Shown: positions 41,101-62,742 of the stretch, one piece after another
Layout of the letters: each line of letters begins with the position of its first letter
Numbering within the stretch: the stretch's first letter is position 1
Source of the DNA: Gekko japonicus
Lineage: Eukaryota
DNA length: 64,000 nt
Reading direction: 5' to 3'
Assembly: GCF_001447785.1 (NCBI RefSeq)
Contig: NW_015164666.1
Location: 1,413,971 to 1,477,970, forward strand
Made by a program: the position numbers and the translations under genes
The notes under the pieces: model-generated
Told to the model about the DNA's origin: nothing
Database searches by the model: none
What the model saw: only the letters and a program-made list of their open reading frames with translations

Positions 41101-44100
41101 AGTGATTTCAGACACCAAAGGACATTAGCAGGCAAATGACACTAGCAGGTGTGATTGGATTAGGTGTGATACGCAGAGAGGTAGTAGGCACATGTCTGTC
41201 ATCCAAGTAAAAATTGTTTAGCTGACTAAAATTGACAGCTATCATCTTATTACGTGTACAATTTATAAACCCCAGTAACTCAGACACTGAAGGTTAAGAC
41301 CATAACAGCATCCCAAAGGTCTATCTAGGTCAGCACTCTGTTTCTAAATTATAACTTTAGATGTCTCTGGGAAGCTTCAGCCAAAAACAAGGCACCGTGA
41401 CGGCTTCAATATCGAAGTGTGAGAACAAACTTATAAATCCCCCTTTCAATCCCAAACTCATTGTGATGGCTTTGTGTGTTCATCCCCTGAATTTAAGACA
41501 AATAATTGTAATAGCTTTGGGAGGCGAAGAGAATGGAGCAGCTTCTCACTGGTCAGCAGAGCTCTTCCTCAGTACGCATAAGAAAACCCTCTAATGAGGA
41601 TCCACAAAACAACTGTGGGGAGGATATTTATTACAGTATACAAGAGAAAAAAACTGCCTCTGTCTGGCCCCTCCCAGCCCTGTGACTTTTTTGGGAGTTC
41701 CCATTTGTCAATCAAATATTACAAGAACCTCAGCATTAGTATCCTTTTCAGATTTTCAAGATGGCATTTTAATTAAAAGTCCAGAAATTAAAACCAGTCA
41801 CAATTAATCATCTAAAGCTTTAGTTTTTCAGTCTGCTGATGAACATTTGCAAACCTAGAATAAGATACAAAAGGATCATACATTTCATGTATATTCATTC
41901 TGTTTAAACTATGGCTATCCCACATAGAATTTTAATAACATGTAAAGGAATTTACTAATATCAATGCCTAGCACATACTTTTTGTGCTTTACAGCATCCA
42001 TATTCAAAGGATGTGAACTCTGTAGCTGATACATGCAGTACTGAACTCAAAATGACAATTAGCTGACATCTTTGCCCAAGCTAATTTTGAAGTTATTTTT
42101 GCTTATCTCCAGTAATTTAAACTCAGTAGACACAAATATAAATTACCACCATAGTAAGTCACTCATTTGTTTCTCAACTTTCAAGCAATTTTTATAAAAA
42201 CAATGGATTCCAAGTCACCGTATGTCAGCAGCTTAATGGACTATCTGCAAAGCACACAGTATTAGATGGATTACTGGCGCAGTAACAAAGAGCCAAATGT
42301 ATGGCTACTGCTATTCAGACTTGCTTGTTTTTATTGTTTTCACAAAGTGTCTTTTGGGTATTTGGCCATTATATCTAAATGAATACAACCACCCATGTGA
42401 TGAAACTGTGGATGAAAAGGTTTAACAAGCTGTGATTTAACACTCTATCTCTACCCCCCCCCCCATGTAATTTGAACGGGTGGGAGCAACATGAGCAACA
42501 GCCATTTTTTTAAAAAAAAGGGAAATAAAACACTGATTTACCTTTAGAAAGTAGTTTTCTAAATCTCTGGGTTGCTGCAAGCTGTTGGTCTGGATCATCT
42601 GAGAAAACCATCTGTATCATATCACAAGTAATTACATCTTCCTAAAAGAGAAAAGAAAAATCACATCACTTTTGCTTTAAACATGTTTGTTACTATAATA
42701 TAAGTTGGATTGGCGCTACCTACCTCAGGTATAGGCACAGTAGAGCTGATATCAGGATCCTGAATAGGACTTTCTTGCATTGACTCATCATTTCCCAGTA
42801 AAGAAACATTTCTGCGTTTGAATAACTAAAGGATGGGGGGAGAAGAAGGTAAAAGAACTTGTCAGGGCGACTGTATGATTATGATCTATGCCAATAAAGG
42901 TTTTGAACTTGAACTTGTCAGGGTTGTTGTTTCTAAATGGGTGGCTTATGTTTAAAATTTCTGTCAAGTAACATCTCATTAGAAATCCACAATAATGTTT
43001 CTCACTTTTAAAACCAATCTGATCAGCCCCATCATCTATTTAACATAAACTCTGTCAAGCTGTGCTGAGTACACTCTTAAACTAACTGTGAAAGTGAATT
43101 TATAATCACAGACCTCAATATGAATTTAGCGGCATATCCACTTGCACTTTTAATCAGATTGGGTCATCTGCAGTGTTGAACACCACTTAGAAAAGACAAG
43201 GGGCAATTTGTTCACAGAGGTGGTAGAGGCTGCATGATTGCACACGATATTCCAGCCTGTTTCTGATTTAACAATGACTTAAGTTATTGCTCTGAATACA
43301 CCCTGTGTTTCAGCTTGAAGCGCTGCATGACCTACAGTACTTAATACCGTAGATCAGAACTGATTTACAGGGCAATCCTAAGTGCACTTCCCTAGGAATA
43401 AGCCCCACTGAATAGACTTGAATAAGATTCTGAGGAGACCTGTTTAGGATGACAGTTGTCCCATGAAGTAGCCAGTGTTTCTCAAAACTTAAAATCACAC
43501 ATTTTATGGAAGGGGATGGTCAGGGCAAATCTGTAATTTAAAAAGGCTGGAGTTTTTACGTGTTCTATCTTATCCCTCAACCCAACACACTTGATTAAGA
43601 TCCTGTGTGTCAAACAATAGAAAATGAACAATGGCAGCACAGTTTTTTAAGGCATTTGGCTGCCACTGTTACAGCTAGAAGCTGGACTAGATAGTGTGCT
43701 CTGATCCAGCAGGGCAATTTTTCAGTTAATTTCCACCTCATGTAAATAAATGTCTGATGGGCTGTAACAACAGTACATCACAAAAGCGGAAGTTGCATCA
43801 TCTCTTTAACATACTTTCTTTTATCAGCATTGTTACTACTTGTAATATTGGCAGACATACTTGTTCTTCTCTCTTCTGTTTCCGAAGCTGAATACCTTCC
43901 TCTTCTCTACGCCGCCGCATCTCTTGGGGATTGAGAGCATTGTTTTTGTAACTTTTCATTCTGCAGTGATCTTTTTCTGGGCTGGTCATGGTATCTATAA
44001 CAAAGGGCAAAAGTTTACACCAAATCCAAACTACATTGTCTTCTATCTGTAGAAAACCCCAGGAAATAACCTAGAGATAACATATGCACTCTGGCCGCAT

Positions 44101-46508
44101 ACAGGAATAGAGATTTTGCATCTTGTTATGTCTATGTAGACAATAGCTCCATTCATGTAGAAAGTTCAGCTATTACCAACATGCTTATGTGGTAATTATG
44201 TTATTTCACAAATATCCTTTTTACTCCTGATTTTAATGCCACACTATATGCAGCACTAATCATCACCTGATCTTTCCTTTCCTGGTTTCCCTGAACTGTA
44301 CTTCAATGGTAGGAAAAATATAACATACCACTAATGTAATTTGGTAAAACCACAAACTAGTTTGGCAAAGAGCAAATGATTGCCCACCCATTACTCTATT
44401 TCCAGAAGTACTTGTTCTCTTTTACTGCTATTATTTTTCATTTGAATGGCCCTATTGGCATACTGCTTCACAGTATTCAAACCTGAATGCAGATGTGCAA
44501 CTATGGATGTTTGCAGATCTTGCCCACATCAGTGCCATTTAACTTGCCCTCGACCCCTACATCAGCCACACTCTTACACACGAGTGCTTTTCCCCCTGAA
44601 GTTGGGAATTGATAAGATTACTATAGAATTATAACAATTTATTGTACAATCTACTAGCTCCCATTTTTTTAAAGTCTCTAGGCTGTTTCATCACAGAATT
44701 ATAACGAGAAAGGTGCAATCTGCATATTTCCCTTTATAACTTCACAACAAAAAGGGCTAGAGACTTTAAAAAAAACCCCAAAGCCTCAAACTATTTATAT
44801 TGTTGCAATAAAACATTATAATGTTGTTGTACCACAGAAAGACTGAAGCATGGAAAGTATGAGGAAAACTGACATGTGGACATTCCATTGCTACGGTAAT
44901 TATTTCTGCATTCACAGCAGTAATGAGAGCTACATGGAAGCAGCCTTAGTGTAAATGAATTCATTAGGACTTGTTCCAAGTAAGAATAATTAGTGATAGG
45001 CTGTTCGCCCTTCTTATCTTTATTCTCTGTGGTATGTACAAGACTGTAGCCATAAAGCAAAACCTTTTAAAAATAAAGAGATGGCTACAGAAGAAACTAA
45101 ATGATATTTGAACGTATTCCATAAGTCCTTTGATATAACGGACTGAAGAGGCCTGACAGCTTCCCTTCCTAGATTACTGAAAGTAGAGGGAGCAAGGCCA
45201 ATGGTGGAGGTCACAGGTTCCAAGAAAAAAATTGCCCTGATAAACAGCTCTCAGCTAATTTTTACCTTCTGTATTCACCATACTGGTATTTGAATATAAA
45301 ATCTACACTGGAATTTTCTTCACACCTGTAGTGGCATATCCTCAATGGCTTATGTGTTCGAACAGTACCACTTATATACCCCCAGAGCTCACATCACCTT
45401 TTGACACACTGCATTTCAGTAGAACCAGTTCACACAGTGATACTAGTTGCCAATTAGGATTGCCAACAAACAAAACCAAAAAAACCCTTCAACCTGTTCT
45501 TCAGCATAGCAAAGTGCAGTTAAAGGTGCAAATCAGCATGTGAAATTTCACAAAATGAAGAAAAATATGTCTCCTTAAAGCCACAAAGATCAACAGAGGC
45601 CAGCTGAGAAGTTGGCCTCTCTCAAAGGGCAGAGGTACATATGAAAGCACAAACTACCACTGAGCAACACTCATCCAGTCTCTGCTGCTCATTAAAGGTG
45701 ACATACCAATACATCTCTTAGGATCACTTTTGGAAACAAAAAGTAATGGAACAGTGGTGCAAGCACAGGGGGGGGAACCACTATATAAAAGGATGAGCTG
45801 ACTTTGAAAGCAAGATTGAAACCTTATAGGCTGCCCATTAAATACACCACTCCTTCACTGTACAGATACCAAGAATAATAGAAGACTTTTGAGGTTTTTC
45901 TTCTCTCACAGACCTGGGGTGTGTAACACTTGGAGAAACTTTTCTTAAACTGAAGGAAAAGCCATCATTGTCAGAGACCCTCAAAGCATAGATAAAAAGA
46001 TTATGCCAGGCAAATCCCTGTCTAAACAGCTGTGGATTCCGCCTCTTTTGAATAGAAGGCTTTGTTTACATGACAATACCTTAGCGGAAGAGAAATAAAT
46101 CGTTTAAGTTAGGCTATTTAAGCACTGCAGCCCTACCAGGTGTATGTTTACTTGAAGGTGACACCCACTGATTTCGGTGGATTCCCTAAGAGAAGGCTCA
46201 CAGGACCGCAACCTTTAGAAAACCTATACCTCTTCTACGCGAACGGAAGAACCCCAAAAGGGCGTGAGCAGCCAGATTATTTATTTTATGCCTGTGCGAT
46301 ACAGCCGTGCGAAGGAAGAAGGTGGCGAAAGCTCCCTTTCCTTTTAAGTGGAGGGACTGGGTGGGAGGGAAGGGCAAGAAAGATTGCGGCACTACATGCA
46401 ATTGACCACCCGGGGGGGGGGCAACTAGGACTAGCCAGTCTCATCACCCAGCACCTACGGACAGAAACATCAACACACACATATTTCACACCCATGCCAC
46501 GCACCCAT
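25963..46508 (-). CDS. KPNA5: KPNA5 (importin subunit alpha-6), 14 coding exons, 539 aa
   Basis: Exon lengths 4+134+102+100+95+132+89+100+164+79+126+128+179+188 = 1620 nt, open frame. IBB domain [41 protein letters not shown]; ARM repeats; KPNA5-type [33 protein letters not shown]; C-terminus [11 protein letters not shown]; synteny with FAM162B and ZUP1. Confidence 0.96.
26900..27530 (-). mobile_element. L2-clade LINE fragment in KPNA5 intron 13 (short inverted piece at about 26900-26960)
   Basis: ORF track shows [13 protein letters not shown]...[12 protein letters not shown]...FKVLL and HAVVTLRLD. Confidence 0.85.
27753..27931 (-). CDS. KPNA5: KPNA5 exon 13
   Basis: [59 protein letters not shown]. 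Confidence 0.95.
29272..29790. mobile_element. GC/CpG-rich non-autonomous element with terminal hairpin; contains a small N-gap (29550-29582)
   Basis: Hairpin AGATTTTTCTGCACAC...GTGTGCAGGAAAATCT shared with about 49438-49484; internal repeats of CCCACCAATCCTT. Confidence 0.6.
30070..30197 (-). CDS. KPNA5: KPNA5 exon 12
   Basis: [42 protein letters not shown]. Confidence 0.96.
30531..30718 (+). mobile_element. Squam2-type SINE
   Basis: Homologous to 23898-24090. Confidence 0.75.
30763..30888 (-). CDS. KPNA5: KPNA5 exon 11
   Basis: [42 protein letters not shown]. Confidence 0.96.
32045..32290 (-). mobile_element. Squam3-type SINE
   Basis: Reverse-complement homology to 6441-6744. Confidence 0.85.
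34008..34880. mobile_element. Cluster of three GGGTTGCCA-type MITE copies
   Basis: TAGGGTTGCCA...TGGCAAC; about 34340-34520 and 34620-34810 are near-duplicates. Confidence 0.8.
35415..35493 (-). CDS. KPNA5: KPNA5 exon 10
   Basis: [26 protein letters not shown]. Confidence 0.95.
36177..36295. repeat. 48-bp direct repeat with 23-nt spacer
   Basis: AGGAAATTCAATTAG[C/A]TTCTTTACTACACAAATTAGATATTCTTAATG at 36177 and 36248. Confidence 0.9.
36800..36963 (-). CDS. KPNA5: KPNA5 exon 9
   Basis: [54 protein letters not shown]. Confidence 0.95.
37976..38075 (-). CDS. KPNA5: KPNA5 exon 8
   Basis: [33 protein letters not shown]. Confidence 0.95.
39304..39392 (-). CDS. KPNA5: KPNA5 exon 7
   Basis: [29 protein letters not shown]. 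Confidence 0.95.
39938..40069 (-). CDS. KPNA5: KPNA5 exon 6
   Basis: [44 protein letters not shown]. Confidence 0.96.
40572..40666 (-). CDS. KPNA5: KPNA5 exon 5
   Basis: [32 protein letters not shown]. Confidence 0.95.
40983..41195 (-). mobile_element. Penelope-like fragment with minimal hammerhead motif (41037-41075)
   Basis: Minus strand reads GTAT-CTGAAGA-AGAGAGCAGTGACTCC-GAAA-GCTC-ATAT...GTCTTTAAGGTGCTACTGGACTC. Confidence 0.75.
42542..42641 (-). CDS. KPNA5: KPNA5 exon 4
   Basis: [33 protein letters not shown]. Confidence 0.94.
42724..42825 (-). CDS. KPNA5: KPNA5 exon 3
   Basis: [34 protein letters not shown]; followed by an 82-nt intron. Confidence 0.93.
43861..43994 (-). CDS. KPNA5: KPNA5 exon 2 (IBB domain)
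   Basis: [45 protein letters not shown]; AG/GT bounded. Confidence 0.95.
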
Positions 46509-47100
46509 GGGGAAGGATGGGCGCCCCTGGCCGCCAACTGCCGCTTTCCCTCTTCCAGACTACCCAGATTCACAATTCAAGATGGCGGCTCCGCCCCGCC
46601 GAAACCCCGCCCCTCATCCTTTCCCATAACCACCCGCGCTCAGGAAAACGAAATGACTGCCAGCTACGAGGAGGGGGCGGGGTTTCCCGTATCCCAGATT
46701 TTGTTGCGCCTTTTGGTGGCCGCGCGAGGAGGCCGAAAGAATTTTGCAAAGGGACCTTGTCTGCTCCCTTTTGCCCCGCATACGCCTCACCTGATGGAGG
46801 AAAAGAAGGCGCGGCCGCCGTGTTGCGCTTTGCTGGTGGGCTGCGGCCGAATTCTCCTGGCAGGTTTGAGCACGTAGAGCCGGGGGGGGGGGGTCATCTT
46901 GTCAGCACGGGTGCAGCGTGGAGGAGCACGGCGATGCTGTACGCCTGGGCATAGTGGGGGTCATCTTCGCCGTGCTGCTCCTTGCTTCCTGTGCCCAGGC
47001 CGACATAGTGCCAAGCTGGGCGTCCCAGTTCCTCTTCTCGCTTGTTCGCCCACCCACGGAGCAGGGGGGACGGACATTCTAGGGTTTGTCTCCGGGATAG
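46200..47100 (-). promoter_or_regulatory. CpG island / KPNA5 promoter
   Basis: CpG-rich, non-repetitive; YY1 motif CAAGATGGCGGC at 46578-46589; GC boxes CCGCCCCGCC at 46591-46600 and GGGGGCGGGG near 46673. Confidence 0.85.
46505..46508 (-). CDS. KPNA5: KPNA5 exon 1 coding part (ATG G)
   Basis: Minus strand ccccATGG|GTGCGT inside the CpG island; supplies the phase-1 G needed for M-D-T-M in exon 2. Confidence 0.7.
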
Positions 47101-47378
47101 CAAATGTGTTTACTTAAATATATCTCAAGCATCCATGTTGTGAAGAGTCCTCACTGAAATCAGTAGAATCTGCTACAGAGTAAATACTGAAATAAACAGT
47201 ATCGAGATATGTTCGGTATTCATTGGGTTTGGTACCTACTGGCTTACCCCAAAACTTTCGTTTCCAAAGAAAATACAAATCCCGTCATACATCTGGGCAC
47301 TTGGTGGAAGTGATGAGAAAGGCAGCAATGCTTGTATTCCAGGCGAATCTTAAAGGTAACAAGGCTAATAGTCTAACA

Positions 47379-47639
47379 CAGGGTGGCCAAACTTGCTTAA
47401 CATAAGAGCCACATAGAATAAACGTCAGATGTTTGAGAGCCGCAAGACACAAACTTTAAATATATTCTCCAAACTCCTTGTCCTCTCTGTCATGCTGGCT
47501 TGTCTTGCAGAAGGGGTTTAAAGAGACAAATTGTGGTAGGGCTTGGAGAACACATTTAATTTTAGATGGGAGGGGGGAGCCATACAATATGTGTGAAAGA
47601 GCCACATGTGGCTCCCAAGCCACAGTTGGGCCACCCCTG
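47379..47639. mobile_element. hAT-type MITE
   Basis: TIR CAGGGTGGCCAA...TTGGGCCACCCCTG; flanks GTCTAACA/GCCTAACA. Confidence 0.8.
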
Positions 47640-47859
47640 GCCTAACACAACTTTTATTAAACGTCAGAAAGTAGCTCTCAGCTAGGAAGGTAAAAATATA
47701 GCTTGTTCTCACAAGGTTGAGCTTGGTTTTATTTAGGGGTGCTGCTGGACTCCAATTTCACTCTCACATCTCTTTGTTAACTCTTGGATTTATGTGCTAA
47801 TTTGCTGCCATCCATTGATACTACAGCCCACCCATTCCAATTTCAACTCTGCATATCCA

Positions 47860-48030
47860 TCTGAGCTCTGAGTGGCCTCTCCTACTGGCTTACCCCCACC
47901 CTCTTTTTCCCAGTAACTAGCTTTTGAGATTTTATTCCAGTTTTGTCTGAAGAAGTGTGTTTTGTACACAAAAGCTTACACTTTGAATAAAACTTCGTTG
48001 GTCTCAAAGGTGCCACTTGACTTTGTTCTC
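47860..48030 (+). mobile_element. Penelope-like fragment with degenerate hammerhead motif
   Basis: CTGAAGAAGTGTG...CACAAAAGCTTA...AATAAAAC...GGTCTCAAAGGTGCCAC. Confidence 0.65.
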
Positions 48031-49359
48031 ATGCAGCTTGAGACTTTACTAAGAGATGCCAGCGTCTGGCAAAGGAAAAGAGAATCTGGGAACTGGGTAA
48101 AAGCAGATGTCTGACAGACCGTTTTGAGGAACTGGACAGTCCCAGACTGTAGAACCAAGAGAATAGAAAATGCTTGCAAGGAGAAACTATATGTTTTAAA
48201 TGTATGTCTGCTGGGCAGCGTTATTCCAGGAAAGCGAAACCTATGTCCTCTGTGCATGCCTGGGGAGTCCTGCTGAGGATTGCTCACAGCAAGGTATTAA
48301 AACTGAATGTAGAGGCAACAGCTTCAGACTCTTTGGGATCTTTATGCTACCCAAGAGTCTCCTTCTGTTGCAATAAAAGTTTGGTCTTTTTTTTTTTAAT
48401 CTCAACTGGCTGTGTTCATTATTGGGATTTGGCACACCAGGCAACGAGCCTGTTTGGCTTAACAGAAGGATGACATGCACAGGCACAGCCTGCTCCCCAT
48501 ACATGTAGGAACTTGTTATAGTAGAGGTCCTATGAAAAATTGAGGTACCTTACAAAGAGCATGGATGCAAGGGAATTTCTCCCCTCCAGCTTTTATTTGG
48601 AGGTGAATTATTTCCTAAATTATATTTGAGAACTGGAATTATTCCTCTCCCCCAAAAAAAGTTGAGTTGAGGGGCTCAGGACCCCTTCCTGCCCCTGCTT
48701 AAGTAATTGCACTGCTGCCACCGAATTTCTCATCAAAGCAAAGATCCCATTGAAGTCTGTCATGAAAAATAGACTCAGCTGGTACAGAAAATGAATATTA
48801 CTATATGGAATTGTGGGGGGGGGTCAAATAGGATCCTGTGGTTCTGCAGAGTTCAAAAAGAACACTGATATTAAAACACAACTGCAGCAAAATAACACAT
48901 TATCATTTTCCCAGAAGGTTGCAAACAGCCTTACCAAAGCCACCAAGTCAGACCATTATGAGAAAAAGGAGAAATGCCAGGTTCATAAGTAAAATATGAA
49001 AGGAGCCACAATTATATAATTTCTTCTGTTTTTGGACAATGTAGATCTGCGAATTTTGGTGTGAGTCAATAAAGTCTTAGGGTGATTCTACTAATCAAAT
49101 GCAATTACCATCTATCTAGTTATCATTTATTTACTTCATTTATATCCTGTGGTTCTTCCTAATGGGGTCTCATTGTTCCCCTTGCCTCCATTTTATCCTC
49201 ACAACAACCCTGTGAGGCAGGTTAGGTTGAGAGTGTGTAGTTGGCCCTAGGTCACCCAAAAAGCTTCCCATAACAGAGGAAAATCAGACCTGGAAAATCA
49301 GACCTGAGTCTTCTAGATCCTAGACCGACATTCTAACTATTACATCACACTAGCTGCCA

Positions 49360-50165
49360 TCTATATACTACTAGCCACCCATGGCCACCATCTGCGGATA
49401 TCTAAATCTGTGGATCGGGGCCATGTGGGGGCTAAAGAGATTTTTCTACACACTTGAGTACTCCCCAAGTGTGCAGAAAAATCTGGAAAGAAAAAAAAAG
49501 GATTTAAATCCCTCAAAAAGTAAAGTAGCAATCTCTGTGCTTGCACAGAGAACGCACCTTCAGTGGTTACTGCAGTCCCTGAGCTGTCCTGAACCAGGTG
49601 GTGGCAGCCCCACAGCTTGGGAGCCAGTAGGGGCACACTGCTAGCAGTGGCACAGCCCAGAAAACCTGCTGGGCCCCGTGGCAGTGGTGCAGCCTGAGAG
49701 CCCAGTTGGGCCCAGCAGCGGCAGCCTGGGAGCTGCACTGGGCCTGGCATCGGTGGCATGGTAACCTGGAGCCATGCTGGGCACAGCCTTGGGGCCATGC
49801 TGAGCCCAGTGTCAGCAGGGCAGGCCAGGAGCTGTGCTGTGCCCGATGTTGGCAGCACATCAGCCCAGGAGCCATTCTGGGCCCAGTGGCAGAGGTGCGG
49901 TAGCCTGGGAGCTGTGCTGAGCCCGGTGGCAGAGGAGAAAGCTGAGTTCAGGAGCCACACCAAACTGCACTGAGGGGGGATATGGGATCCCCCCCCCAGC
50001 TCATGGTAGAAGAGGGTGCCTGGTAGTCAGCAGCAGTGGAGAAGAATGCTGGACTCAGGAGCCCCCCCCAGATCTCCCCCCCAACTGTAAGGGGAATCAC
50101 CAGCAATGGGAGGAGGGATTCCTCCCCACACAAATATTGTGGGTCCCCACATCTTATATTCTAAT
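49360..50165. mobile_element. GC-rich non-autonomous element related to 29272-29790
   Basis: Shared hairpin; internal tandem GCCTGGGAGC/CTGGGCCCAG units at about 49600-49940. Confidence 0.55.
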
Positions 50166-50254
50166 AGCAAAGTCAGTATATGTTTGGATACTTAAATACT
50201 TTAGGTACTGAAATCCTGTGATTCAAAAATCTGAAAACGATAAAAGGAGTGCCT

Positions 50255-51896
50255 ATAGCGGGGGTGGCAAAACTTGCTTAACGTAAGAGCCACATAGAAT
50301 AAACATCAGATGTTTGAGAACTGCAAGACATGAACAAATATTACATGTTTTTATTGGAAAATATGCAAATTTGCTTTTTATTAATATTAAACAAGGCTGC
50401 CAAAAATAAAAACAAAAGTGGTAAAAGCAGATATTGATAATGATATTTATTTGTCCAATGATATTTGTTTGCTTAAGGTCCCGTTCACACGAGGGGATTT
50501 GGGCCGGGAGCAGGACGGTTCGGAGGCGGAGCAAACGGCCGTGATCACACCACAACATCTGGGAAGCATAGTGCTTCCGTCCCCGAACTGGTCCATCCAC
50601 ACGATAAGCCGCATCAAGTTGGAACCACCTACCGAGGTGGTTCATCTCAATGGTGCGCCGCAAACCGGGAGTCTGATCGCCGGCGTGTCCTTGCGCCGGC
50701 GCGATCGTGCCGGGGAGAAAAGGCGGTGCGGCCAGGGGATCCGTGGGATCCCGCCGCGCCGTGTCAACTTTGGCACGCCTTTTAAAAGCCACGCTTTTTG
50801 GCGGCTTTTCCCTGCCGTGTGGACGGGGCCATAGATATTTATCTGTCTGAATGAGAGAGAGGTGGAAAGAATGAAAGAGGTGGCAAGAAATAGAGAGAAA
50901 CAGAAAGCAAATAGGTGGGGAGGGAGGGAGGAAGACAGTGGGAAAGAAAAGGAAAAAGAGAAAGGTGGAAAGAAAGAATATAGATGGGGAGGGAGGGAAA
51001 GAAAGCAAAAAATGGTCGAGGGAAGGGGAGGAAGGAAGAGAGAAAGAAAAAGCAAATAGATGGGGGGAGGAAGGATGGAAGGGAGAAAGATAAAGGTGGA
51101 AAGAATTTAAGAGGTGGAAAGAAAGAAGGAGAAAGAGCAAATAGATGGGAAGGGACAGGAAGGAAAGGAGAAAGACAGAGAGAAAGAAAGAAAGAAGATG
51201 GGGGGAGGGAGCAAGAGAGATGGAAAGAAAGCAAATATATGGGGAGGGAGGGAGAGGTGGAAAGAAAGCAACTTTAAATGTGTTCTCCAACCCACGCTGC
51301 CACGCCGGCCAGCTTGGTGAAGGGATTTAACTTATTTAAATTGAACTTATAAAATTTAAAAAGAGAAGTGCCTTCTCCAAGCTGGTGGGTGGGGCCATGG
51401 GGCAGGGTCTTGGAGAACACCTTTAACTTTAAATGGGGGTGGAGTTTGAAGAATACATTTAACTTTAGATGGAGATAGAAAGAGCCCCCTGCCCCTGCTG
51501 CCATGCCAGCTTGGCTTGGAGAACAGATTTAAAGAGACTAATGCCTTCTCCCAGCCAAGCCAGCTGGTGTGGTGGAAGGGTGGGGTTTGGAGAACACATT
51601 TAACTTTAGATAGGGGGAGAGAGAGAGAGAGAAAACAACTTTAAATGCATCCTCCAAGGCCTTCAAGCTGGGGGGGGGCTTTGACAACACATTTAAAGTT
51701 AAAATTGCTTTCATTCTCTGTTCCACCACCACCACCACCTCAAACCTACCTAGGGAGGGGAACACTGAATGAGGAAGGGAAGACCAATCTGGGAGGCATA
51801 CCTCCCCTTTGCTTTCCCAGCTACCCCACCAGAAGCTGCACAATATGTGTGAAAGAGATGCTTGTGGCTCCTGAGCCTCAGGTTGGCCACCCCTGG
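50255..51896. mobile_element. Long hAT-type element (same ends as 47379-47639) with purine-rich low-complexity interior
   Basis: GGGGTGGCAAAACTTGCTTAACGTAAGAGCCAC...GGTTGGCCACCCCTG; recurrent GGAGAACACATTTAA motifs. Confidence 0.75.
50477..50830. mobile_element. CpG-rich PIF/Harbinger-like MITE nested in the hAT element
   Basis: TIRs GGTCCCGTTCACACG...CGTGTGGACGGGGCC in an A/T context. Confidence 0.7.
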
Positions 51897-51994
51897 CCTT
51901 TTTCTTTAAGCAACAGATTCCTTCAGTGGCTGTTGCTAGACATCCACAGTTTTACAGGTTTCCATTTTTGTGAGTAAAAATGTAGGGGGAGGTG

Positions 51995-53385
51995 GCAAGG
52001 CCCTTTCCAGACCTATTTTGGCCTCTGCAAGAGAAATCATTGGGGCCAGGCCTGGCTCATGTTGCCAGCTCCAGGGTGGAAAATTCCTGTAGATTTTGCT
52101 GTAGAGTCTGAGGAGGACAGGGTTTGGGGAGGGGAGAGGAGAGGCCACAGCTGAATCTAATGCCATAGAGTCCACTCTCCAAAGCAGGCATTTTATCCAG
52201 GGGGGCAGATCTCTGCTGTCTGGAGTTCTGTTGTAATTCTGAGATATTTCCAGATCCCACCTGGAGGTGGCAACCCTAGGCCTGGAAGCAAACTCTGGGT
52301 GACTTGATAACACCCGACTTTATGAATGAACTAGGTCTGGCTGTTTACTATTGTTCAACAGCAGCCACCCCATGAAAGCCACTGTGGTGTAGTGGTTAGA
52401 GCTTCAGAGTATGGCTTCTGAGACCCAGGTTCAAATCCCATCTTGCTGTGGAAGCTCACTGGGTGATTTTGGACCAGCCACATACCGTACTTTCAGCCTA
52501 ACCTACCTCACAGAGTTGTTGTATGGATAAAAAGAAGAGAATTATGTAAGCTGCTTTCATCCCTGCTGTGGAGAAAGGTAAGAGTATCAGTGAAGTTAAT
52601 AAAGAATAAATATAGCTGAAGATGGGAGGCAGATAAAAGGTAGGTTGGTGAATGGCTGAGGAGGAGATAATGAGGCAAGGAGAGGGTACGGGGATTGCCA
52701 AGAGGAGGGAGAGCAGTTAGGAAATTGGGGAAGAGGGGCTGGGGAGGGTGGGTTGAGGAGGAGAGGGACCTCAGAGAAGTATAATGCCATAGACTTCACC
52801 CTCCAAAGCAGCATTTCTTCCAGGGGAAATAGGGTTGCCAGCCTCCAGGTGGGGACTGGAAATTAACACCCAGAATTACAGCTGCTCTCCAGATGCCAGA
52901 GATCAGTTCCCCTAGAGAAAATGGCTGCTTTGGAGAGTGGGCTTTATGGCATTTTACCCTGCTAAGATTGCTTTCCTTCCCAAAGCTCCACCCCCAAATC
53001 TCCAGGGAAGAAGAAAATATTGGATTTATACTCTGCCTTTCACTACTTGAAGGAGTCTCAGAGCAGTTTACAATCTCCCCTCCCCACCCCCAGACACCCT
53101 GTTAGATAGGTGGCGCTGAGAGAGAACTTTTGAGAACTGGTCTTGAGAGAACAGCTCTGAAAGAATTTATAATTGCCCCAAGGTCACACCACAGCAGCTG
53201 CATGTGAAGGAGTGGGGAATCAAACCTGGTTCTCCCAGATTAGAGTCCGCGCTCATAACCACTACACCAAACTGGGATTTCCCAACCTTAATCTGGCAAC
53301 CCTAAAGGGAACTGATCTTGGTAGCTGGGAGATCTGTTGTGATTTCAGGAGATCTCCAGACCCCATCCAGAGGTTGACAATCCTA
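51995..53385. mobile_element. Nested cluster of GGGTTGCCA-type MITEs and tRNA-derived SINEs (52377-52610 +; 53007-53275 -)
   Basis: Homology to the other copies in the window. Confidence 0.8.
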
Positions 53386-54008
53386 GGAGAGAAGGAAACA
53401 GGAAAAGAGGAGATATACTATGGAGGCTTTCAGGAAAGAGGAAATAGTGGGTTCCCAGTTGTACACTTTATAGTGGTCCAGACAGCAATGTTAACAATCT
53501 GCTGTTCTCCTGATTTCCCCATAATGGTCTTTTATTGTTGCTTTTGTGTTGAACACAAGTACAATTTCTGGAGTTTGTGGACAGTCCGTGCTACTGTTTC
53601 CCCATATTCTCAGGATAATGTGTTTTGGCATCTCAGAAAATAGTTTTGGTTGTTAGCCTCTGACCCGTCTGCTATGATTGCCAGTTAAAAATAATTATTA
53701 GTATAATATTTCCACGATTTCAGCATTTCACAATGCTTCCATTTCCACAATCAGGTGCTAATCGTATGTACTGTTTGGTGGGGCACAGGCCCAGATGTGG
53801 CCTGACAGCACATGGAGGATGTGTGAGGAAAATGAGAAAATTCTGCAGTGGAGTAGTAAAAGTCCCAAGTAGCTCAAAGGTGGGGGGAATGAGAAAGTTC
53901 ACCTCTGCCAACATCAGGAAGCAGATTCAGGTAACATAACAAACTTCCCAGGAGGTGAACTAGTTCGATATCCACCGATGAGTGGATCCTGTTCTAACTA
54001 GATGCAGG

Positions 54009-54354
54009 CAGGGGTCATTTCCTGCAGTACCAGGGGGCGGGCACATGCAACAAGCCCTGTCCCCTGCAGCTCTCAGTCAGAGCAAGCAGGTAAGTTGCAG
54101 ACCCCCCCCCCCGTCCAAAACAGTCCAGTGGCACCTTTAAGACCAAGCTTTATTCAGGTACAAGCTCTCCCTCCTCTTCCAGGACAAATCTGCACGCCCC
54201 CCCCCCCTCTATAGCTAGCAATCCAAAACAGTCCAGTGGAAACTGAGCGTGGATGTTGCCTTCCGGTACACTTCCGGTGACGTCAGGGGGCGTGGCATAT
54301 CCAAATAAGTTATGCTAATGAGCTCCTGCACCTCTTTTTCTACAAATGACCCAT
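54009..54354. mobile_element. hAT-like MITE
   Basis: TIR CAGGGGTCATTT...AAATGACCCATG; flanks GATGCAGG/GATGCAAT. Confidence 0.75.
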
Positions 54355-54479
54355 GGATGCAATGCAAGTAATGATGGAACGATTTCATTGCAGAAAATAG
54401 CCCCAGTGTGGAACAGCCCTCACAGTGCAACCCTAAATTGTTGTTTTAGGATTCCGCTGTTATCCTCGCTCTAATTTGT

Positions 54480-55330
54480 TTTTAAACGCTTCATCCCCGA
54501 TATGACCGATTTCCGGTACGCGCTAGCGGCCAGTGGAATGCACTGAGCACTTTCCCAGGGGCAATTTTCTCTATTCTGACCTTCCAGGGCTTGAATGTCT
54601 GGCGTTGAAGACAGATGCCAGCGTAGACCCCAGTCCCCAGTTCAATTTAAAGCCAAGGTTGACGTTTGCGGGGCCGTGAAAAGGCAAAGGAGCCTGAATT
54701 TAACCAATAACTCATACCGAGGCCTATTGTGAAGCACGGAGAGGATGCGGCGTGCCTGGCGCACGCGCACTAGGCTCCGTTTTGAACGGAACAGAAACAA
54801 AACCAAGTGAAGCGGCCCTTCAGGAAACGGGTGGGTGTGCTTGGGTTTTGTTTTCGTGTATTAGGGTTCACGCGAACGGAGAGACGGCGCATGCGCCAGT
54901 TTCTGTACAGGCAAGCGGTCAATCAAGGGTGGTCGATTCCCCTCCTTTAATTCCGAGCAGCTCCGCTTCTACTGCGGTTGGATTTTTAATCCCTTATCTC
55001 TGGGTGTGGCAGCGGACTCGACTCGTCAAACCTCGGTTCCCGCGAGTGCTTTTCTTGGGCGGTCCGGAGACGTGGAAGTGTCCGCGACGGTGTGAAGGAA
55101 GCCGATGTACAGCCAGAGGAGTTCCTCCGCGGGCGCCCAACCTCCCGCTCGAGGTGAGTCACTATCCAAAACGTCCCTTGATTCCTCCGCGGTCCGTAGC
55201 TGGCAACTCAAATATGCTACTCCCATTGGACAGAGCTTTGCCTTTTGCGTCGATATGAACATTCTGTTGCGTTTCTTCTGCGGTGGTTCTTTCGCACACG
55301 CAAGGCCGTGCGCAGCTTCTGGATGCTGCT
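54480..55330 (+). promoter_or_regulatory. CpG island / ZUP1 promoter and exon 1
   Basis: CpG-rich; NRF1-type palindrome GCGCATGCGC at 54887-54896; GGAAGTG ETS-like motif at 55074-55080; strong donor GAG|GTGAGT at 55153/55154. Confidence 0.82.
55105..55153 (+). CDS. ZUP1: ZUP1 exon 1, candidate coding part (MYSQRSSSAGAQPPAR)
   Basis: ATG 55105 to donor = 49 nt (phase 1), in frame with the next exon. Kozak context is weak, so this could be 5' UTR with initiation at 55690. Confidence 0.5.
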
Positions 55331-57753
55331 GCAGGCAATCTGCATGTGCAAACCGAGCCTCCTCCTAGTGGTGGTGTCCTCTCACCCTGAACCCCTGCTT
55401 CCAATGCAGGGCAGCCCAGTAGCTTGGTGTTCAATTGGAAGGAAGCCCAACACTGTTTACTATGGCTTACTTCTAGATAAATGTACATAGGATTGTGGAC
55501 TCTGGTACCAATTTCCTATCCATCTTTACTGGAAACAAAATCCCACTTAATTTGATGTTGGGATCCCCTTTTTCCCCTCTGAGCAGGGGATATGACAGCT
55601 GATCTTTAAAAAAAACTGTTAACAAATGGTAATCTGACTAGTTGTTCACTTAATCTGATCCCCCCTTTCCCTCAGAAAATGATCAAGAGATGTATGAATG
55701 TCCAATGTGTCACCTTGTTTGTACTGACTATCCAGTTCTACAAGAACATGTTGAATTACACTTGGAGGAATCCAGTTTTTTAGAAGGTAAGGGGGAAGAA
55801 TCCAAAATATGAAAGGTACTTTGTTGTTTTTTTTATTTAAAACATTCTGACATTCAGGATTTAATGACGATTTAAAATATTCTGTCATTCTTCTTGATTT
55901 TATTTACATATTGTGGAAAAATGAAATCCCCTAATGTAAACTTTGATTGTTCCGTTAACATATTTTATTTATTTATTATCAAATTTATACCCTGCCCTCC
56001 CAGCCAAGGCCGGCTCATAAAACCGTTGAAGCTGGGGGGGGAATCCACCAGCAGCACCAAGATAATCTTGTGTAGCCCTTTCCTTCTAGGAAAATTTTTG
56101 AAAATGTCATAGATATATTAATGTAATATGATTCTTGAAAATCTCTAATCTGCATTGTCATACATTCTCAGCTTTCTGAAATCTAATAGAATTTCTGTTA
56201 TAAAATATAGCATATTGTAACAGATAATTGGGCATCCAGCTTGTCAAAAATATTTAGTTGGTTGACCAGTTAAATATTTTTAAAGCATTCCTTTTGCTGC
56301 CCCATACAGTGATTAATATCAACATGCTAGTTACAAAAAAGCTAATACTTTCATTACCAGTTACCTTTTAAAATAATTATTGTAACTTTTAACATTGTTA
56401 AGTAAAGTTTGTATAGATTTGAATTACTCATTGTATAACTCCTCTTTGGCTGGTACACTGGGGTCAGCCTGCCGTTAGAATATTTTACTAATGAAATTAA
56501 CATGGAAATAAAATAACAGAAGTTATTAGACCATTTTTATTACTAGAAATTTTGCTGTAACAACATTTCAAGTACTCAGATACCCACTAACTGGTATTCT
56601 TAGAATATTTTGATTGTGGTCAAACAGTAGGTGGTCACTTGCCATCCCTACTGCAGACCAATTAAGTGAAACTTTATTTATTGGAACCATCTTTTGTTGT
56701 ATATTATAGGAAGAAACTTGCATGATCTAGAATTGGCTCAGCATATCCAGAATGAGGAAGTGAGGCAGCGAAGAGAAGCTTCAAGACGAGAGAGAGAAGA
56801 TTTTCAGAAGCTGCAAGTATGATCACATTGGTCTAACTGCTAGATGTATTAGATCAGGGGTGTTGAATTCATTTGTTACGAGGGCCAGATCTGACATAAA
56901 TGTCACTGTGTCGGGCCGGGCCATGTGTGCCATGAAATGTAACACAAGGTACTGGAGATATAAAGTTTATAAAGATGACTTCAGATGCCGGATGGCAATA
57001 GCAGGCATGATTGGATTAGGTGTGATATGCAGACGGGTGGAAATGTCAGCATTGGTGTGATATACAGAGGCTTGGAGAGATCAGCATTGGTAATGAGACA
57101 GGAAACCTAGGTCTCAAGTTGGTAAAGGAGGATTCAGTCCAGGAAGAGGCAAAGAATAAATGGAAATAAGTCTGAAGAACTGAGCAGTGACTCACAAAAG
57201 CACATACCCTGCCACAATTTTGTTAGTCTTTAAAGGTACAACTGGACTCTTTTTCTATACTATTAGAAACCACAACATGCAAAAACCAACGGGGGAACAT
57301 TTTAACCTTCCAAGAATCCAGAGCATTCATTTGCTGACCTAAGAATAGCAGTTCTCTTACAAAAGAATTTCTAAGGGAGATTAGAAACCACAACATGCAA
57401 AAACCAACGGGGGAACATTTTAACCTTCCAAGAATCCAGAGCATTCATTTGCTGACCTAAGAATAGCAGTTCTCTTACAAAAGAATTTCTAAGGGAGATT
57501 AGAAAAAGAGAGTGCTGAATTGCAACTGATCATGAAGCTCAAGACAATGCAGACTACTGGACTGAATTGAGACCTAGGTTTCTTTTCTCATTACCAATGC
57601 CTGCTATTGTCATTTGGCGTCTGAAATCACTTTCCAAGATATAAGGACAGATGGACTCACATTCCAGCTGTATCTGAAGAAGTGAGCAATGATTCATGAA
57701 AGCTCGTGCTTACCCACAAAACCCTATATCTGGAATAAAACGTTTTTGGTCTC

Positions 57754-57786
<33 letters not shown>

Positions 57787-60700
57787 GACAAAGAAAGGTA
57801 TGTGCACACAAAACCTTTGCTGGTCTTCTTAAAAGTCCCACAAGATGCCATTTCCCCCCCTCTCTCCGTCTCTTTCCTTCCCCCTCCCTCCCCAGAGCAA
57901 AGCAGGAAATAGGAGAGACTGGGGGAAAGGAGCTGCGATGTTAGAAGCAGGAAACAGCACAGAGTCAGTTGCTCTCAGGCCGGATTGTGGCCTTCCAGGG
58001 GCCGCATGTGGCCTATGGGCCATCTGTTTGATACTCCTGTATTAGATGCCTTATTTGCTATGGCGTTTTACTTTAGTACTGTCTTCAGAGAAGTTGAGAG
58101 GTCATGCTGCTTTATAAATGTGCAGTACACTACTTGTGTTTGCACAGTTCTATCAGATGGTTATTAAGCTCTTGGTAGCAGTCGGTGGAGCAAAGGGTGC
58201 ATCTCTCTAATTAGGATGCAGAGTTACCCCAGTCTAAACCCTTTGATTTCAGAGAGCTAACACTGGAGTAACTCTGCAAAGGATTGTATTGACAGTAAGC
58301 CACAATATTACAGGGGAGATGGCTTATTTGTTTCATTGTTGTTGTTAAATCACTTCTTAATAGAGAGTTAATGAATTTATTTCAGAAACCTCTTCTCTGA
58401 AAATTTCTTCATATTCTCTAAATACATGAATATTTGACATCTGTGTAACATCTAGTGTTCCCTCTAAGTTGAGTTAGTGTGAGCTAGCTCACAGTGTTTT
58501 AGCCTTTGGCTCACACATTGTTGTCTTTGCTCAGGAAGGACGGCTCCAGAGCAAACTAATTTATGCAGTAGCCAAATTGCTCACTATAAGGCCTCTAAAA
58601 GATACTCAGTCCTCCTCATAGCTCCAATTGGATTTTCTTCTCAGTTGAAACCTCCTCTTTTCACCCTTACAGTGTATAGCACTTAATATGATAGTTCCCA
58701 TGCAGTTGGTAAAAGCCACAAACCATGCCATCCCACAGACATGAGAGGATATTTTCCTCTTTAGGTGCTCCCCAGGTATGCAAAATATGACTTGGTAAGT
58801 TAAGAACAAATACCCTCATGTAAGCCTGATGGAGACTGAAAATGTTTCAAAAAGCACCTAAAAGTTAAGTGTCAGTCAGAGAAAATGCAGTGAGGGTGAG
58901 ATTGGCTTGCTTGAAAGTTTATGAAGACCCTCTGGAGGGGTGGGATTATTCTTCTTTTCCATGATTCCTTGCAGCCCCCCAAACTTATGTACTTGAATAA
59001 AATAACTGTGTTTTGATTGGTTCATTTATCTTTGTTACAGTCCTGTCAGCAAACAGTGAGTTATCCTCATAATAAAAGGTTGTCAGTTTTGCCTGATGTG
59101 TGGCATTCTTCCTGCCCAGTCTCACCCGGTCACCTCTCTGCCATCTTGCCACGAGCCCTGTATCCTCCCTAGGCTTCAATTAGAAGCAGCGGGAGTTCTT
59201 TCACCTTATTGCTCTCTTCCACAGGCAGCAGCTATCACAGCCTTGAGCTGAGCCTCCATCTCCTCCCAGTCCATTATCAGGAGTCTCCCTTTTAACCTCT
59301 GCTGTCTCCTTCCCAACTGGCACCCAATCCCAGGGCAGGTTCTGGCCTAAGAGACCAGTGGCCTTCATTATCCCTTTCCCTTGCCAACACCTGGTCCTTG
59401 CCCTGCCCTTCTCTGACTCCTTTCCACAACCAGGCTGGATAGCCAGAGGGCTACTGGGTCTCTGGGCCCTTCTTACCCTGCTGTGAGCCTGTCCTCCCAT
59501 TGCTTTCAGCAAGCTTGCCCTTCTGCCTGAACTGTCCCCCACTGGAGCCTGACCCCATGGCATCATGCCCACCCCTGCCAGACTGGGCCTGCCCCAGCAG
59601 TCTTGCTGCTGGCCTTGTTGAGTGAGGCTCCCCTCAGCTGTTTCAACCTTTTCCCTCCCCTCAGGGCACTGGAAAGAACGTGCCTAGGTAAGTCTTTGGC
59701 AGCGTGAGCAGAGGAGGCACCCCCCAGTCCAGAGCTATCTCCAGACAGCATACTGGGCTGGCCGGCCTGTACTCTTGGTTTTGGGCCTTTTGACTGCCTC
59801 TACTTACAGCTTCCCATAATCTCCACCTTATGAAAGGACTGTCCTACAGGTATGCATAAAGAAGTTTCAAATAGGACAGGAAGACAGATGTTACATATAG
59901 AATTCTCTTTTAAAAATGGTGAATATTAACTCATCTTTATTCTTTGAGCAGAAGTTAACAGAGTTTCCGTGTTCCACAATATCCTATCAAGCTAGTTTTC
60001 AGTAACTGGAAGTTGGCTGCAAGTTATATCAATCTAAGGTGAAATCAGAAACAGGTCAGCCTCCATTGTAATGTAAAATATTACATGGTGGTATTATACA
60101 GGGATCTTTGTTTACTATAGAAAAATTATTAAGATTCTAGTAATAAATCCATATAATAACAGAAGTTCCAAAATGTCTGTCGTGTTCAGAAATATAATGT
60201 GGGTCATTTTGATATGCTAGGCTAGGCACAGATAACTATTGATATTTGTTGTGATGGACAAATGGCAGTTCCTACCAACAGAGAGACTGAATATGAATGC
60301 TTAACTTTACCATTTTTTTCCTCTCTCACTTTGAAATATTTGTATAACTTTTAGTTGAACAGAATCTGTATAGAAAAATAAGGGCTTAGTTTTACAATGA
60401 ATTATTAAATGAAGTGGTACTTGCTAATGCCAATAACTGATACAGTGTGCCTGTTAAATTATGTATTTTGTTTGTTCAATATTCATACAAACTATTGTAA
60501 TTTATCCTTACCAGAGACAATATGGCGTGGATGGTTCTGGTGGGTACAAGCAGCAGTCATTGAAGAACATGGAAAAGGAAGTAGCTCGGGGAAGAATGAA
60601 GCCTTCTGAGTATCATAAGAGAAAAGCTGACATGATGGAATCTTTGGCTTTTGGCATTGATGATTTAAAGACACGGACTTCAGGTCAGTAGTGCAGAGAA

Positions 60701-62742
60701 AGTGAGCTTCCTCAGAAGCCTGATTTAAAGTAACTAGGAGTCATCCTTAACAGCCACTGCTGATTAGGAGTTGTCTTGTTCTGGGATATGTATGGATACG
60801 GTAGAAAAATGTCTCTTTCTCTGATCTGCCAAAACAGAAATAAAAATTGTATGGACCTCAAGATCTGGTATAGGCATGTGATTCTTATAATCCTTGTTAC
60901 TTGTAGTACTGCTAAAGTACACTGAGTGTGGTTCTTCCAGATTTTGTGACAATTTGTCAGCCCGGAGATCAGACACCCATCAGAGTTTTTAGGTATTCTA
61001 GCATACTTGTACCATTTAACCTCAAGATATGTGCAATTTAGTTTTCCAGGCAAGAGTTTTGGTTCAGTGAATAGTAATAGGAAATATGGACTTCAGCTGT
61101 CTGGCATATATTTTGTGATCCATGTTAAGTATCATAAGAGGGTTTTGCACTTTATTGGATCTCCCTGTGTAATATCTGACAGGCTCATTTATTAATGTAT
61201 TCATGATTTCTTAATGTGTAATGCTAAGTCTCAGTGATAATAACTTGATTGTTTCCTGAAGTGAGTGAACTGTTTGATTAGCTGTACAAAACTGTGTGAT
61301 TCAGGTTCTGAAGCCCAGGATGGATATTTGCTCAGATGTGTTTTTTTTTGTTGGTTTTTTTTGGGACTTTGCTGTTTCCTAAATAAATTGACATTGTATT
61401 ATTACACATTAGCTATTGGCTTCAAGTAGAGGGTCTTTTGCTGACATTTTATCACTCTTACTTGTATATACTTATGGAGCTTAAAGCCCACACCTTATTT
61501 GAAGCCCTTTGTAGAAGTCCTGATTTATGGTTTCTGTAATCAATCTATTATGTTTGCAGTCTGTCTAATATAGTTTCCAATGCATTTACTCAGAAACAAG
61601 TGCTACTGATCTTACTGAAACTTACTTCCAAATATGCTGTATTGCTTTCAAGTCTGAATGAGAGAGATTGCTCTTAAAAGTCCATTATATGCAGTAAATA
61701 AAAGGTTATGGTGTCACTTATTGCACTCTGGTGTCCAAAATATATTACAGTCTATCTTGTTCACAATCAACCATGGCTGAAGGAAAGATTCAAAGCCTGT
61801 CTATTATCCAATTAGGCCACGCTGATTCCATGAGCTTTGCAGAGTTCCACAGTACCATGGTGTCTGGAATTTTCTTTGTTGTTGGTAACATCTGCTAATG
61901 TAAAATGTAACAGATGTAAAGGGGCCACAGTGGCTTAGAGGTTAAGACACTGATCTGCAGACTGGAAGATCTGTAGCTTGGTAGTTCAAGACCCTAGTGC
62001 CGTGTGACAGAGTGAGCGCCTGTCTCTGGCCCCAGCTCCTGTCAACCTAGCAGTTCAAAAGCAAGAAATTGCAAGTAGATAAATAGGTACTGCTTTGGTG
62101 GGAAGGTAACAGCATTCCGTGCGCCTTGGCGGTTAGTCATGCCAGCCACATGACAACGGAAACGTCTTTGGATAGTGCTGGCTCTTTGGTTTGGAAACAG
62201 AGATGAGCACCGCCCTCTAGAGTCGGATTCGACTAGCTTTCAAGCAAGGGAAACCTTTACCTTTATCTTTAATGTGGCTTTAGTGTTTATTTGTGCTGGT
62301 TTCAATACTATTTACAAATCGTATTTATGCACTAATTTCGCAAATGCAAACTGTGGGAACATTGCATCTCCTATCATTTGGAAGTCCTATTTATTTATTG
62401 GTTTACGTTTTTATTACCACTGTGGGAGAAAAGAAACTGGATTTTATTCTGTGTATATCTACTTTGACTAGAACAACACATACAGTATAGTAAACAAATT
62501 TACCTGTTATCAGTACCTGTCTCTTCCCCACCCCCTTTTGTGTTTTTAATCAGGCATTACTGAAGTGCTCAGCCATTACTATCGAAGTGAATCTAAAGAC
62601 ATAAAGCGAGTCTGGCTTTCTATGGGAGTGGATCACTACTATTGTTCTTTAGAAGATAAAGGCTGGGGTTGTGGTTATAGGAATTTTCAGATGATGCTTT
62701 CTTCTCTCCTGAGAAACGGCACCTACCAAGACTGCTTGAAAG
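55105..62742 (+). CDS. ZUP1: ZUP1 (ZUFSP) deubiquitinase, 5' part: join(55105..55153,55676..55786,56710..56816,60515..60683,62554..62742); continues beyond window
   Basis: C2H2/UBZ finger YECPMCHLVCTDYPVLQEHVELHL; MIU-like DLELAQHIQNEE; RQYGVDGSGGYKQQ; catalytic motif DKGWGCGYRNFQM. Phases consistent. Confidence 0.93.
55676..55786 (+). CDS. ZUP1: ZUP1 exon encoding the UBZ-type zinc finger (ZnF4 equivalent)
   Basis: ccctcAG acceptor and AAG|GTAAGG donor; NDQEMYECPMCHLVCTDYPVLQEHVELHLEESSFLE. Confidence 0.92.
56710..56816 (+). CDS. ZUP1: ZUP1 exon (MIU / helical arm)
   Basis: GRNLHDLELAQHIQNEEVRQRREASRREREDFQKLQ; AG/GT bounded. Confidence 0.92.
57262..57505. repeat. Perfect 118-bp tandem duplication
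   Basis: Units start at 57262 and 57380; junction microhomology ATTAGAAA recurs at 57498. Confidence 0.95.
57670..57709 (+). ncRNA. Candidate minimal type I hammerhead ribozyme (Penelope-associated)
   Basis: GTAT-CTGAAGA-A-GTGAG-CAATGA-TTCAT-GAAA-GCTC-GTGC: both conserved boxes, a stem II and a short stem I are present. Confidence 0.55.
57753..57785. repeat. (TCTG)n microsatellite
   Basis: Seen directly. Confidence 0.95.
60515..60683 (+). CDS. ZUP1: ZUP1 exon
   Basis: RQYGVDGSGGYKQQSLKNMEKEVARGRMKPSEYHKRKADMMESLAFGIDDLKTRTS. Confidence 0.95.
61921..62270 (+). mobile_element. Sauria SINE (Squam1), full length
   Basis: Collinear with 3104-3450; (ACCTTT)n tail. Confidence 0.88.
62554..62742 (+). 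CDS. ZUP1: ZUP1 exon with catalytic cysteine (TGT 62670-62672)
   Basis: GITEVLSHYYRSESKDIKRVWLSMGVDHYYCSLEDKGWGCGYRNFQMMLSSLLRNGTYQDCLK. Confidence 0.95.

Follow-up and report, generated by a model that had tools for sequence, protein, structure and literature searches.

The ZUP1 gene of the gecko Gekko japonicus raises the question of what became of the first three zinc fingers of the protein (ZnF1-3) and what kind of enzyme is left without them. The initial annotation of the 64,000-nt window analysed here (the window means this whole stretch of DNA) proposed that the exon for these fingers is missing. The answer, which we hold with good confidence, is that gecko ZUP1 is a 403-aa protein with 24 residues ahead of ZnF4, that ZnF1-3 are absent from it as from every sampled squamate, that the first coding exon likely eroded in a squamate ancestor, and that the product is a predicted K63-chain deubiquitinase. 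The structure of the gecko gene, its splicing and the absence of the fingers are direct observations.

Gene structure and transcripts of gecko ZUP1

ZUP1 lies head to head with the 5' exons of an importin-alpha gene (43846-46600, minus strand), which we take to be KPNA5 by synteny, human ZUP1 likewise being beside KPNA5. A separate CpG island, at about 46300-47100, belongs to the importin-alpha gene. The gecko reading frame opens at ATG 55105, with a donor GT after 55153 and an acceptor AG before 55676; the 49 coding nucleotides of exon 1 leave phase 1 and are spliced in frame to the ZnF4 exon across a 522-nt phase 1 intron. Across the window and the next 30 kb of the contig, the complete gene has nine coding exons and eight introns, all of which are GT-AG (8/8); exons 6-9 lie outside the window, on the following part of the contig (L003). 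The intact 403-aa frame is identical to RefSeq XP_015264578.1, and exon 5 matches human ZUP1 structures with E 1.6e-25. Sequence is free of N from 29583 to the window end, and the KPNA5-ZUP1 interval has no gap. The initial annotation had the layout of a short promoter exon and a ZnF4 exon right and had correctly seen no N-gap between them; its extents need correction, with the ZnF4 exon ending at 55786 and the promoter exon starting near 54387. Its claim that ATG 55105 splices in frame to the ZnF4 exon agrees with the gene model, with RNA junction reads and with a retrocopy that joins the same two exons. Feature coordinates are collected in Table 1.

Table 1. Features of the ZUP1 parent locus (window coordinates) and of its retrocopy (locus coordinates).
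Feature	Position	Strand	Evidence or remark
CpG-island promoter and longest 5' leader	54387..55104	+	CpG o/e, RNA depth, retrocopy start
Minor alternative intron in 5' leader, GT-AG, 182 nt	54831..55012	+	7 reads (6 X20, 1 X19)
Likely relic of older squamate start: in-frame GTG, then in-frame TGA	55072..55104	+	By-eye Pogona alignment
Exon 1 coding part, 16 codons + 1 nt; likely eroded 3' end of ancestral ZnF1-3 exon	55105..55153	+	
Intron 1 without zinc-finger exon	55154..55675	+	RNA and profile search
Exon 2, ZnF4/UBZ, 111 nt	55676..55786	+	In-frame skip in minor isoform
Exon 3, MIU helix	56710..56816	+	
ZUP1 feature between exon 3 and exon 5	60515..60683	+	
Exon 5, catalytic Cys185 (human C360), parent-specific E179	62554..62742	+	
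Full-length ZUP1 retrocopy	L002 1188-3240 (G000:C11856)		Intact frame, poly(A), target-site duplication

The promoter and leader region has a CpG o/e of 1.0 compared to 0.23 for the whole window. RNA depth over the leader is continuous from about 54382 in run X20, and the 5' end of the retrocopy is equivalent to parent position 54387. Directly upstream of the leader is a heavily transcribed short repeat (54200-54345; depth near 1900 in X19). Other features of the window include a CpG-rich interspersed repeat at 50480-50830, with 4790 first-look candidates, of which 40 were scored, at 93-100% identity; the window copy is without about 87 nt found in most other copies. A tandem duplication of about 117 nt occurs in ZUP1 intron 3 (57267-57500).

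RNA evidence comes from four of the 21 listed runs (X19, X20, X21 and X5), with 3-12% of each raw run read. The 55153>55676 junction, for which the initial annotation had proposed an RNA-seq check, is present in 33 raw reads from two of the three raw runs (26 in X20, 7 in X21, 0 in X19) and in one X5 contig. Depth is zero across 55201-55473 of intron 1 in 4/4 runs, and no extra ZUP1 exon is reached by any of the eight joints listed for these runs. Exon 2 is skipped in eight reads, which yields RefSeq isoform X2, a finger-less form of 366 aa that also occurs as a cobra model (P0013). This form would be weak alone and RPA-dependent, as human residues 231-578 have been reported to be (bioRxiv 10.1101/2023.01.27.525918). 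There are 13 near-fixed differences between RNA and the window among those shown between 54500 and 56764, and the RNA animals are therefore not from the window's individual or population.

Absence of the fingers and the origin of exon 1

Searches for the fingers were empty wherever ZUP1 lies. A ZnF1-3 profile of 18 turtle, crocodile and bird regions found nothing in six frames of 46000-55700 (best -0.9 bits), which extends to that whole interval the initial reading of no finger-coding ORF in the intron or upstream; no ZnF1-2 relics were detected in the leader or upstream DNA. An assembly search for the missing N-terminus, as the initial annotation had advised, recovered no ZnF1-3 exon with either cat-family or turtle queries: cat-family ZUP1 has no genome match before residue 180, and turtle residues 1-100 have 54 weak C2H2 matches among the best 120 candidates scored (best E 0.0017, 36% identity), none of which is on either ZUP1 contig. 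By genome, RNA, profile and Pfam evidence, gecko ZUP1 is without a human-type N-terminal ZnF1-3. The intronless retrocopy joins the same two exons and is therefore independent proof of a ZUP1 mRNA without ZnF1-3. The claim that ZUP1 has no exon for these fingers thus stands on the direct RNA junction, the retrocopy and empty profile and genome searches. A single-copy CpG-rich stretch at 46860-47130, on the far side of the importin-alpha promoter, was considered as a displaced finger exon and rejected; it has no Pfam match in two frames and no profile match. A collapsed assembly as the cause of the missing fingers is ruled out by the RNA junction, the gap-free interval and the empty profile search.

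GC-rich exons are often lost from assemblies, this assembly is fragmented (191,500 contigs) and a small part of each raw RNA run was read, yet a finger exon absent from the assembly, or lying further upstream and rarely spliced in, is extremely improbable and already largely refuted by the direct junction with its empty intron, the exon join in the retrocopy, the gap-free KPNA5-ZUP1 interval and the agreement of 32 squamate species.

ZUP1 lacks ZnF1-3 in 45/45 squamate proteins from these 32 species, which include geckos, skinks, lacertids, an amphisbaenian, iguanians, a monitor and snakes; the proteins come from two protein searches (33 matches; best 120 of 688) and from cluster members. A single CxxC precedes the catalytic region in 35/45 proteins, 10/45 have none and 0/45 have more than one. 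Annotated squamate ZUP1 proteins (XP_015264578.1, XP_034274562.1, XP_020657849.1) have the gecko arrangement of a short peptide and then ZnF4, with the gecko start about 10-20 residues later than in most other lizards and snakes. Four fingers occur in turtles (P0037, P0045), a crocodile (P0072) and birds (P0050, P0052, P0063, P0067), in which the linker is about 85 aa shorter than in mammals. In tuatara (P0129, one model) ZnF3 is present with an internal Met-Glu. Squamates being short and tuatara having ZnF3, the loss would therefore date to after the tuatara split and before the squamate crown, which has an estimated age of about 190 million years (PMC12629976). Judging from these proteins, loss of ZnF1-3 is old and squamate-wide, and is not gecko-specific. 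The initial annotation was right to describe gecko ZUP1 as naturally shortened at its N-terminus, with ZnF4, MIU, ZHA and the catalytic core still in place; novelty for the gecko lineage falls with 45/45 squamate proteins being short and the gecko protein being already annotated, and the orthologue survey brings its own caveat into force, namely that a short ZUP1 annotated in most squamates is not novel. As a separate matter, some turtle and bird models have only two or three fingers: an intact ZnF3 is missing in softshell and pig-nosed turtle models, and ZnF1-2 are missing in several bird models (P0038, P0048, P0022, P0053, P0044). These may represent recurrent sauropsid finger erosion or incomplete models.

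Exon 1 is probably the eroded end of the old finger exon, not a recruited non-coding exon. Three steps would lead to the gecko state. The ZnF2-3 linker would have shrunk by about 85 aa in the sauropsid ancestor, with the region turning Pro/Ala/Gly/Arg-rich; the squamate stem would then have lost ZnF1-2 and the first half of ZnF3, with translation from a Met inside the ZnF3 helix, one that tuatara still carries internally; and the gecko start would have shifted about 11 codons downstream. Non-gecko squamate N-termini read Met-Glu/Asp, then a basic stretch, often with Leu-Leu; the tuatara ZnF3 helix opens with Met-Glu and continues in this basic/Leu-Leu pattern. In position tests with residues 2-18 of nine non-gecko squamates (first Met left out), the ZnF3-helix window ranks first or second of 70-94 windows in 7/8 sauropsids and fifth in the eighth. 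Its score is reached by 0-5 of 1000 of its own shuffles in 7/7 tested. Against this stand the short length of the homology, about 15 residues, and the ranks of 22-95 of mammal and caecilian windows; the targets are related and so are not independent, and for other reptiles the comparison concerns proteins only. In the gecko, the in-frame translation from a GTG at 55072, which precedes the ATG by 11 codons, lines up by eye with the Pogona N-terminus, and the GTG is likely at the position of the older squamate start; the putative leader relic is not significant alone (178 of 300 shuffles).

The initial annotation implied another route, in which the finger exon was lost entirely and an in-frame ATG arose in a non-coding promoter exon upstream. 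Exon 1 is a CpG-island exon, as such an exon would be, and human ZUP1 exon 1 is non-coding; against this, the turtle and bird finger region begins the protein and itself has many residues whose codons are GC-rich. Gecko peptides do not measurably resemble ZnF3, and the sliding test beat the best-window shuffle null for no single target (9 to 52 of 60 shuffles reach the score in eight sauropsids), both of which would suit a recruited exon. A local HMM of the ZnF3 tail likewise gave no squamate peptide a clear score (best 13 of 300 shuffles), so that among the homology tests the position-specific ones alone were favourable. The resemblance that these find, at a fixed position, between non-gecko squamate N-termini and the ZnF3 helix, and the tuatara Met-Glu at the aligned place, argue for a finger-exon remnant, and we regard recruitment as unlikely.

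An intact ZUP1 retrocopy

A second ZUP1 locus was found by DNA search, in which the match to exon 1 continues into exon 2 without interruption. It is intronless, with nine contiguous blocks matching nine parental exons, and its frame is intact (403 aa; P0001, XP_015275256.1). A poly(A) signal is followed by an A-run, and a 14-nt exact direct repeat (L002 1188-1201 and 3227-3240) forms the target-site duplication. Like vertebrate processed retrocopies in general (PMC13320880), the gecko copy has no introns, ends in poly(A) and lies between target-site duplications; it differs in being full length, with a leader of about 720 nt that carries a CpG island, and in its mosaic divergence. The same source reports that retrocopies are fewer outside mammals and that most are without an intact frame. 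The parental CpG island is kept (o/e 1.01 vs 0.23 for the window). Retrocopy and parent have 29 coding differences, and 18 non-synonymous and nine synonymous codons separate them (dN 0.020, dS 0.040).

The reading that we somewhat favour is of a retrocopy that has not yet decayed, being young or partly homogenised. Divergence is mosaic: 51/1322 sites (3.9%) differ before codon 228 and 4/646 (0.6%) after it, a partition matched by 0 of 300 permutations, and the 3' UTR is identical over 117 sites (0/117 differences). A young copy of a divergent haplotype, cDNA-mediated conversion or a merging assembly path would each give such a pattern. Alone, this reading gives no account of changes at near-invariant sites sitting on the parent, and of the near-fixed differences between the RNA animals and the window, only 2/13 have the retro allele in those animals.

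That the retrocopy is a functional retrogene driven by a promoter of its own, and the parent under relaxed constraint, is possible though doubtful. It would fit the annotated intact frame, the retained CpG island with one deamination-type CpG loss in the retrocopy vs four in the parent, and the polarity of the 18 amino-acid changes, of which 13 are parent-derived, four retro-derived and one ambiguous (p 0.049). The parent-derived P14 is absent from the RNA animals, and without it 12 vs 4 is not significant (p about 0.08); the pairwise dN/dS of about 0.5 on a dS of 0.04 is too shallow for a selection test. A retro-type allele at 55683 occurs in 7/43 reads of X20 and 2/12 of X21 (about 16%), which would also fit a transcribed retrocopy, but it is a single site among the rows shown (23 more rows exist) and could be polymorphism, and RNA reads are mostly parent-type (121 at the exon 3-4 edge, agreement 0.99). 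A run search with the retrocopy sequence listed no RNA run among 18 rows with 0.29-0.36 of words and is not used as evidence. The strong form, in which the retrocopy has replaced the parent, is rejected, with the parent intact and the source of most reads. A wider scenario would have all squamates rely for genome maintenance on a one-finger ZUP1 reached by stepwise exon erosion, with the CpG-promoter retrocopy now the constrained copy in this gecko, the parent drifting near its active site and a handover in progress; we consider it improbable. Evidence of expression and constraint would raise the importance of the retrocopy.

Predicted function and meaning of the short enzyme

Gecko ZUP1 has ZnF4/UBZ, MIU, ZHA, alpha-2/3 and the catalytic triad in the same order as human ZUP1/ZUFSP (peptidase C78; 6FGE, 6EI1); it differs in lacking ZnF1-3 and the long linker (403 vs 578 aa). 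The C-terminal peptidase C78 domain matches PF07910 with E 2e-55 (187.9 bits, cut-off 29.1), and gecko C185, Q313, H317 and D338 align with human C360, Q487, H491 and D512; the equivalent of Y267 is also kept. Residues 59-403 match 6FGE with E 2.6e-163, with MIU, ZHA and alpha-2/3 preceding the catalytic domain, and ZnF4/UBZ is a C2H2 motif at residue 25 that aligns with ZnF4 of other vertebrates. By these alignments, the ubiquitin-binding and catalytic core appears to be retained, as the initial annotation had said. Human L269, G315 and G354 are replaced by V, L and E in the gecko parent. In a 145-row alignment without P0042 and P0127, from which parent and retrocopy were excluded for column counts (143 homologues), parental L140 and E179 stand where Gly occurs in 140/143 and 142/143 homologues, T218 where Lys occurs in 139/143, and V94, at human L269, where Val occurs in 3/143. 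Of V94, L140 and E179, the first is the one confirmed in RNA, by the parent-type reads at the exon 3-4 edge. The human L269A mutant has been reported inactive (PMC5896202), and these three changes speak against full activity of the parent.

In the squamate enzyme, ZnF4, MIU and ZHA would bind polyubiquitin, alpha-2/3 would be the route of stimulation by RPA, and Cys185-His317-Asp338 would carry out the cleavage; loss of ZnF1-3 would cost at most some avidity for long chains. Squamate ZUP1 is predicted to be a K63 deubiquitinase of somewhat lower avidity because catalytic residues are kept and because of published human truncations, and the gecko protein likely still works. Human ZNF4-MIU-cat is active and K63-specific in vitro (PMC5896202), loss of ZnF1-2 slightly raises human activity (PMC5824887), and catalysis is said not to need the fingers, whose effect on long chains is modest (PMC8776766). 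RPA binds via alpha-2/3, with no pull-down by residues 1-269 (bioRxiv 10.1101/2023.01.27.525918), and PARP1 binding has been placed in the catalytic domain (PMC13453636). Of the fingers in isolation, ZnF2, ZnF3 and ZnF4 bind ubiquitin but ZnF1 does not (PMC5862848); because ZnF2 and ZnF3 do so, loss of the fingers may matter in cells.

Squamate ZUP1 is a natural counterpart of the engineered human ZNF4-MIU-cat, with the same domain content. Its value as a test of ZnF1-3, which the initial annotation had stressed, is lessened by the equivalent human truncation having been assayed in vitro and found active (PMC5896202). Finger number varies across the ZUFSP family, with 1xUBZ in plants, none in Mug105 and 5xUBZ in insects, and the available portions of that literature (PMC5824887, PMC8776766) contain no case of vertebrate finger loss. 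Short squamate ZUP1 is already in databases, including the identical 403-aa gecko protein in RefSeq. No paper on squamate loss of ZnF1-3 or on a gecko ZUP1 retrocopy was found in a search that mostly excluded subscription papers; Supplementary Fig. 7 of PMC5824887 may bear on the former.

The short squamate protein is thus genuine and ancient, a variant form of a known enzyme that extends across squamates, and published truncations largely anticipate what it means biochemically. It raises no long-standing question. A vertebrate order without ZnF1-3 supports the biochemical view of these fingers as accessory and narrows the essential roles possible for them, and the squamate state suggests that the part of ZUP1 from ZnF4 to C78 is the core under selection.
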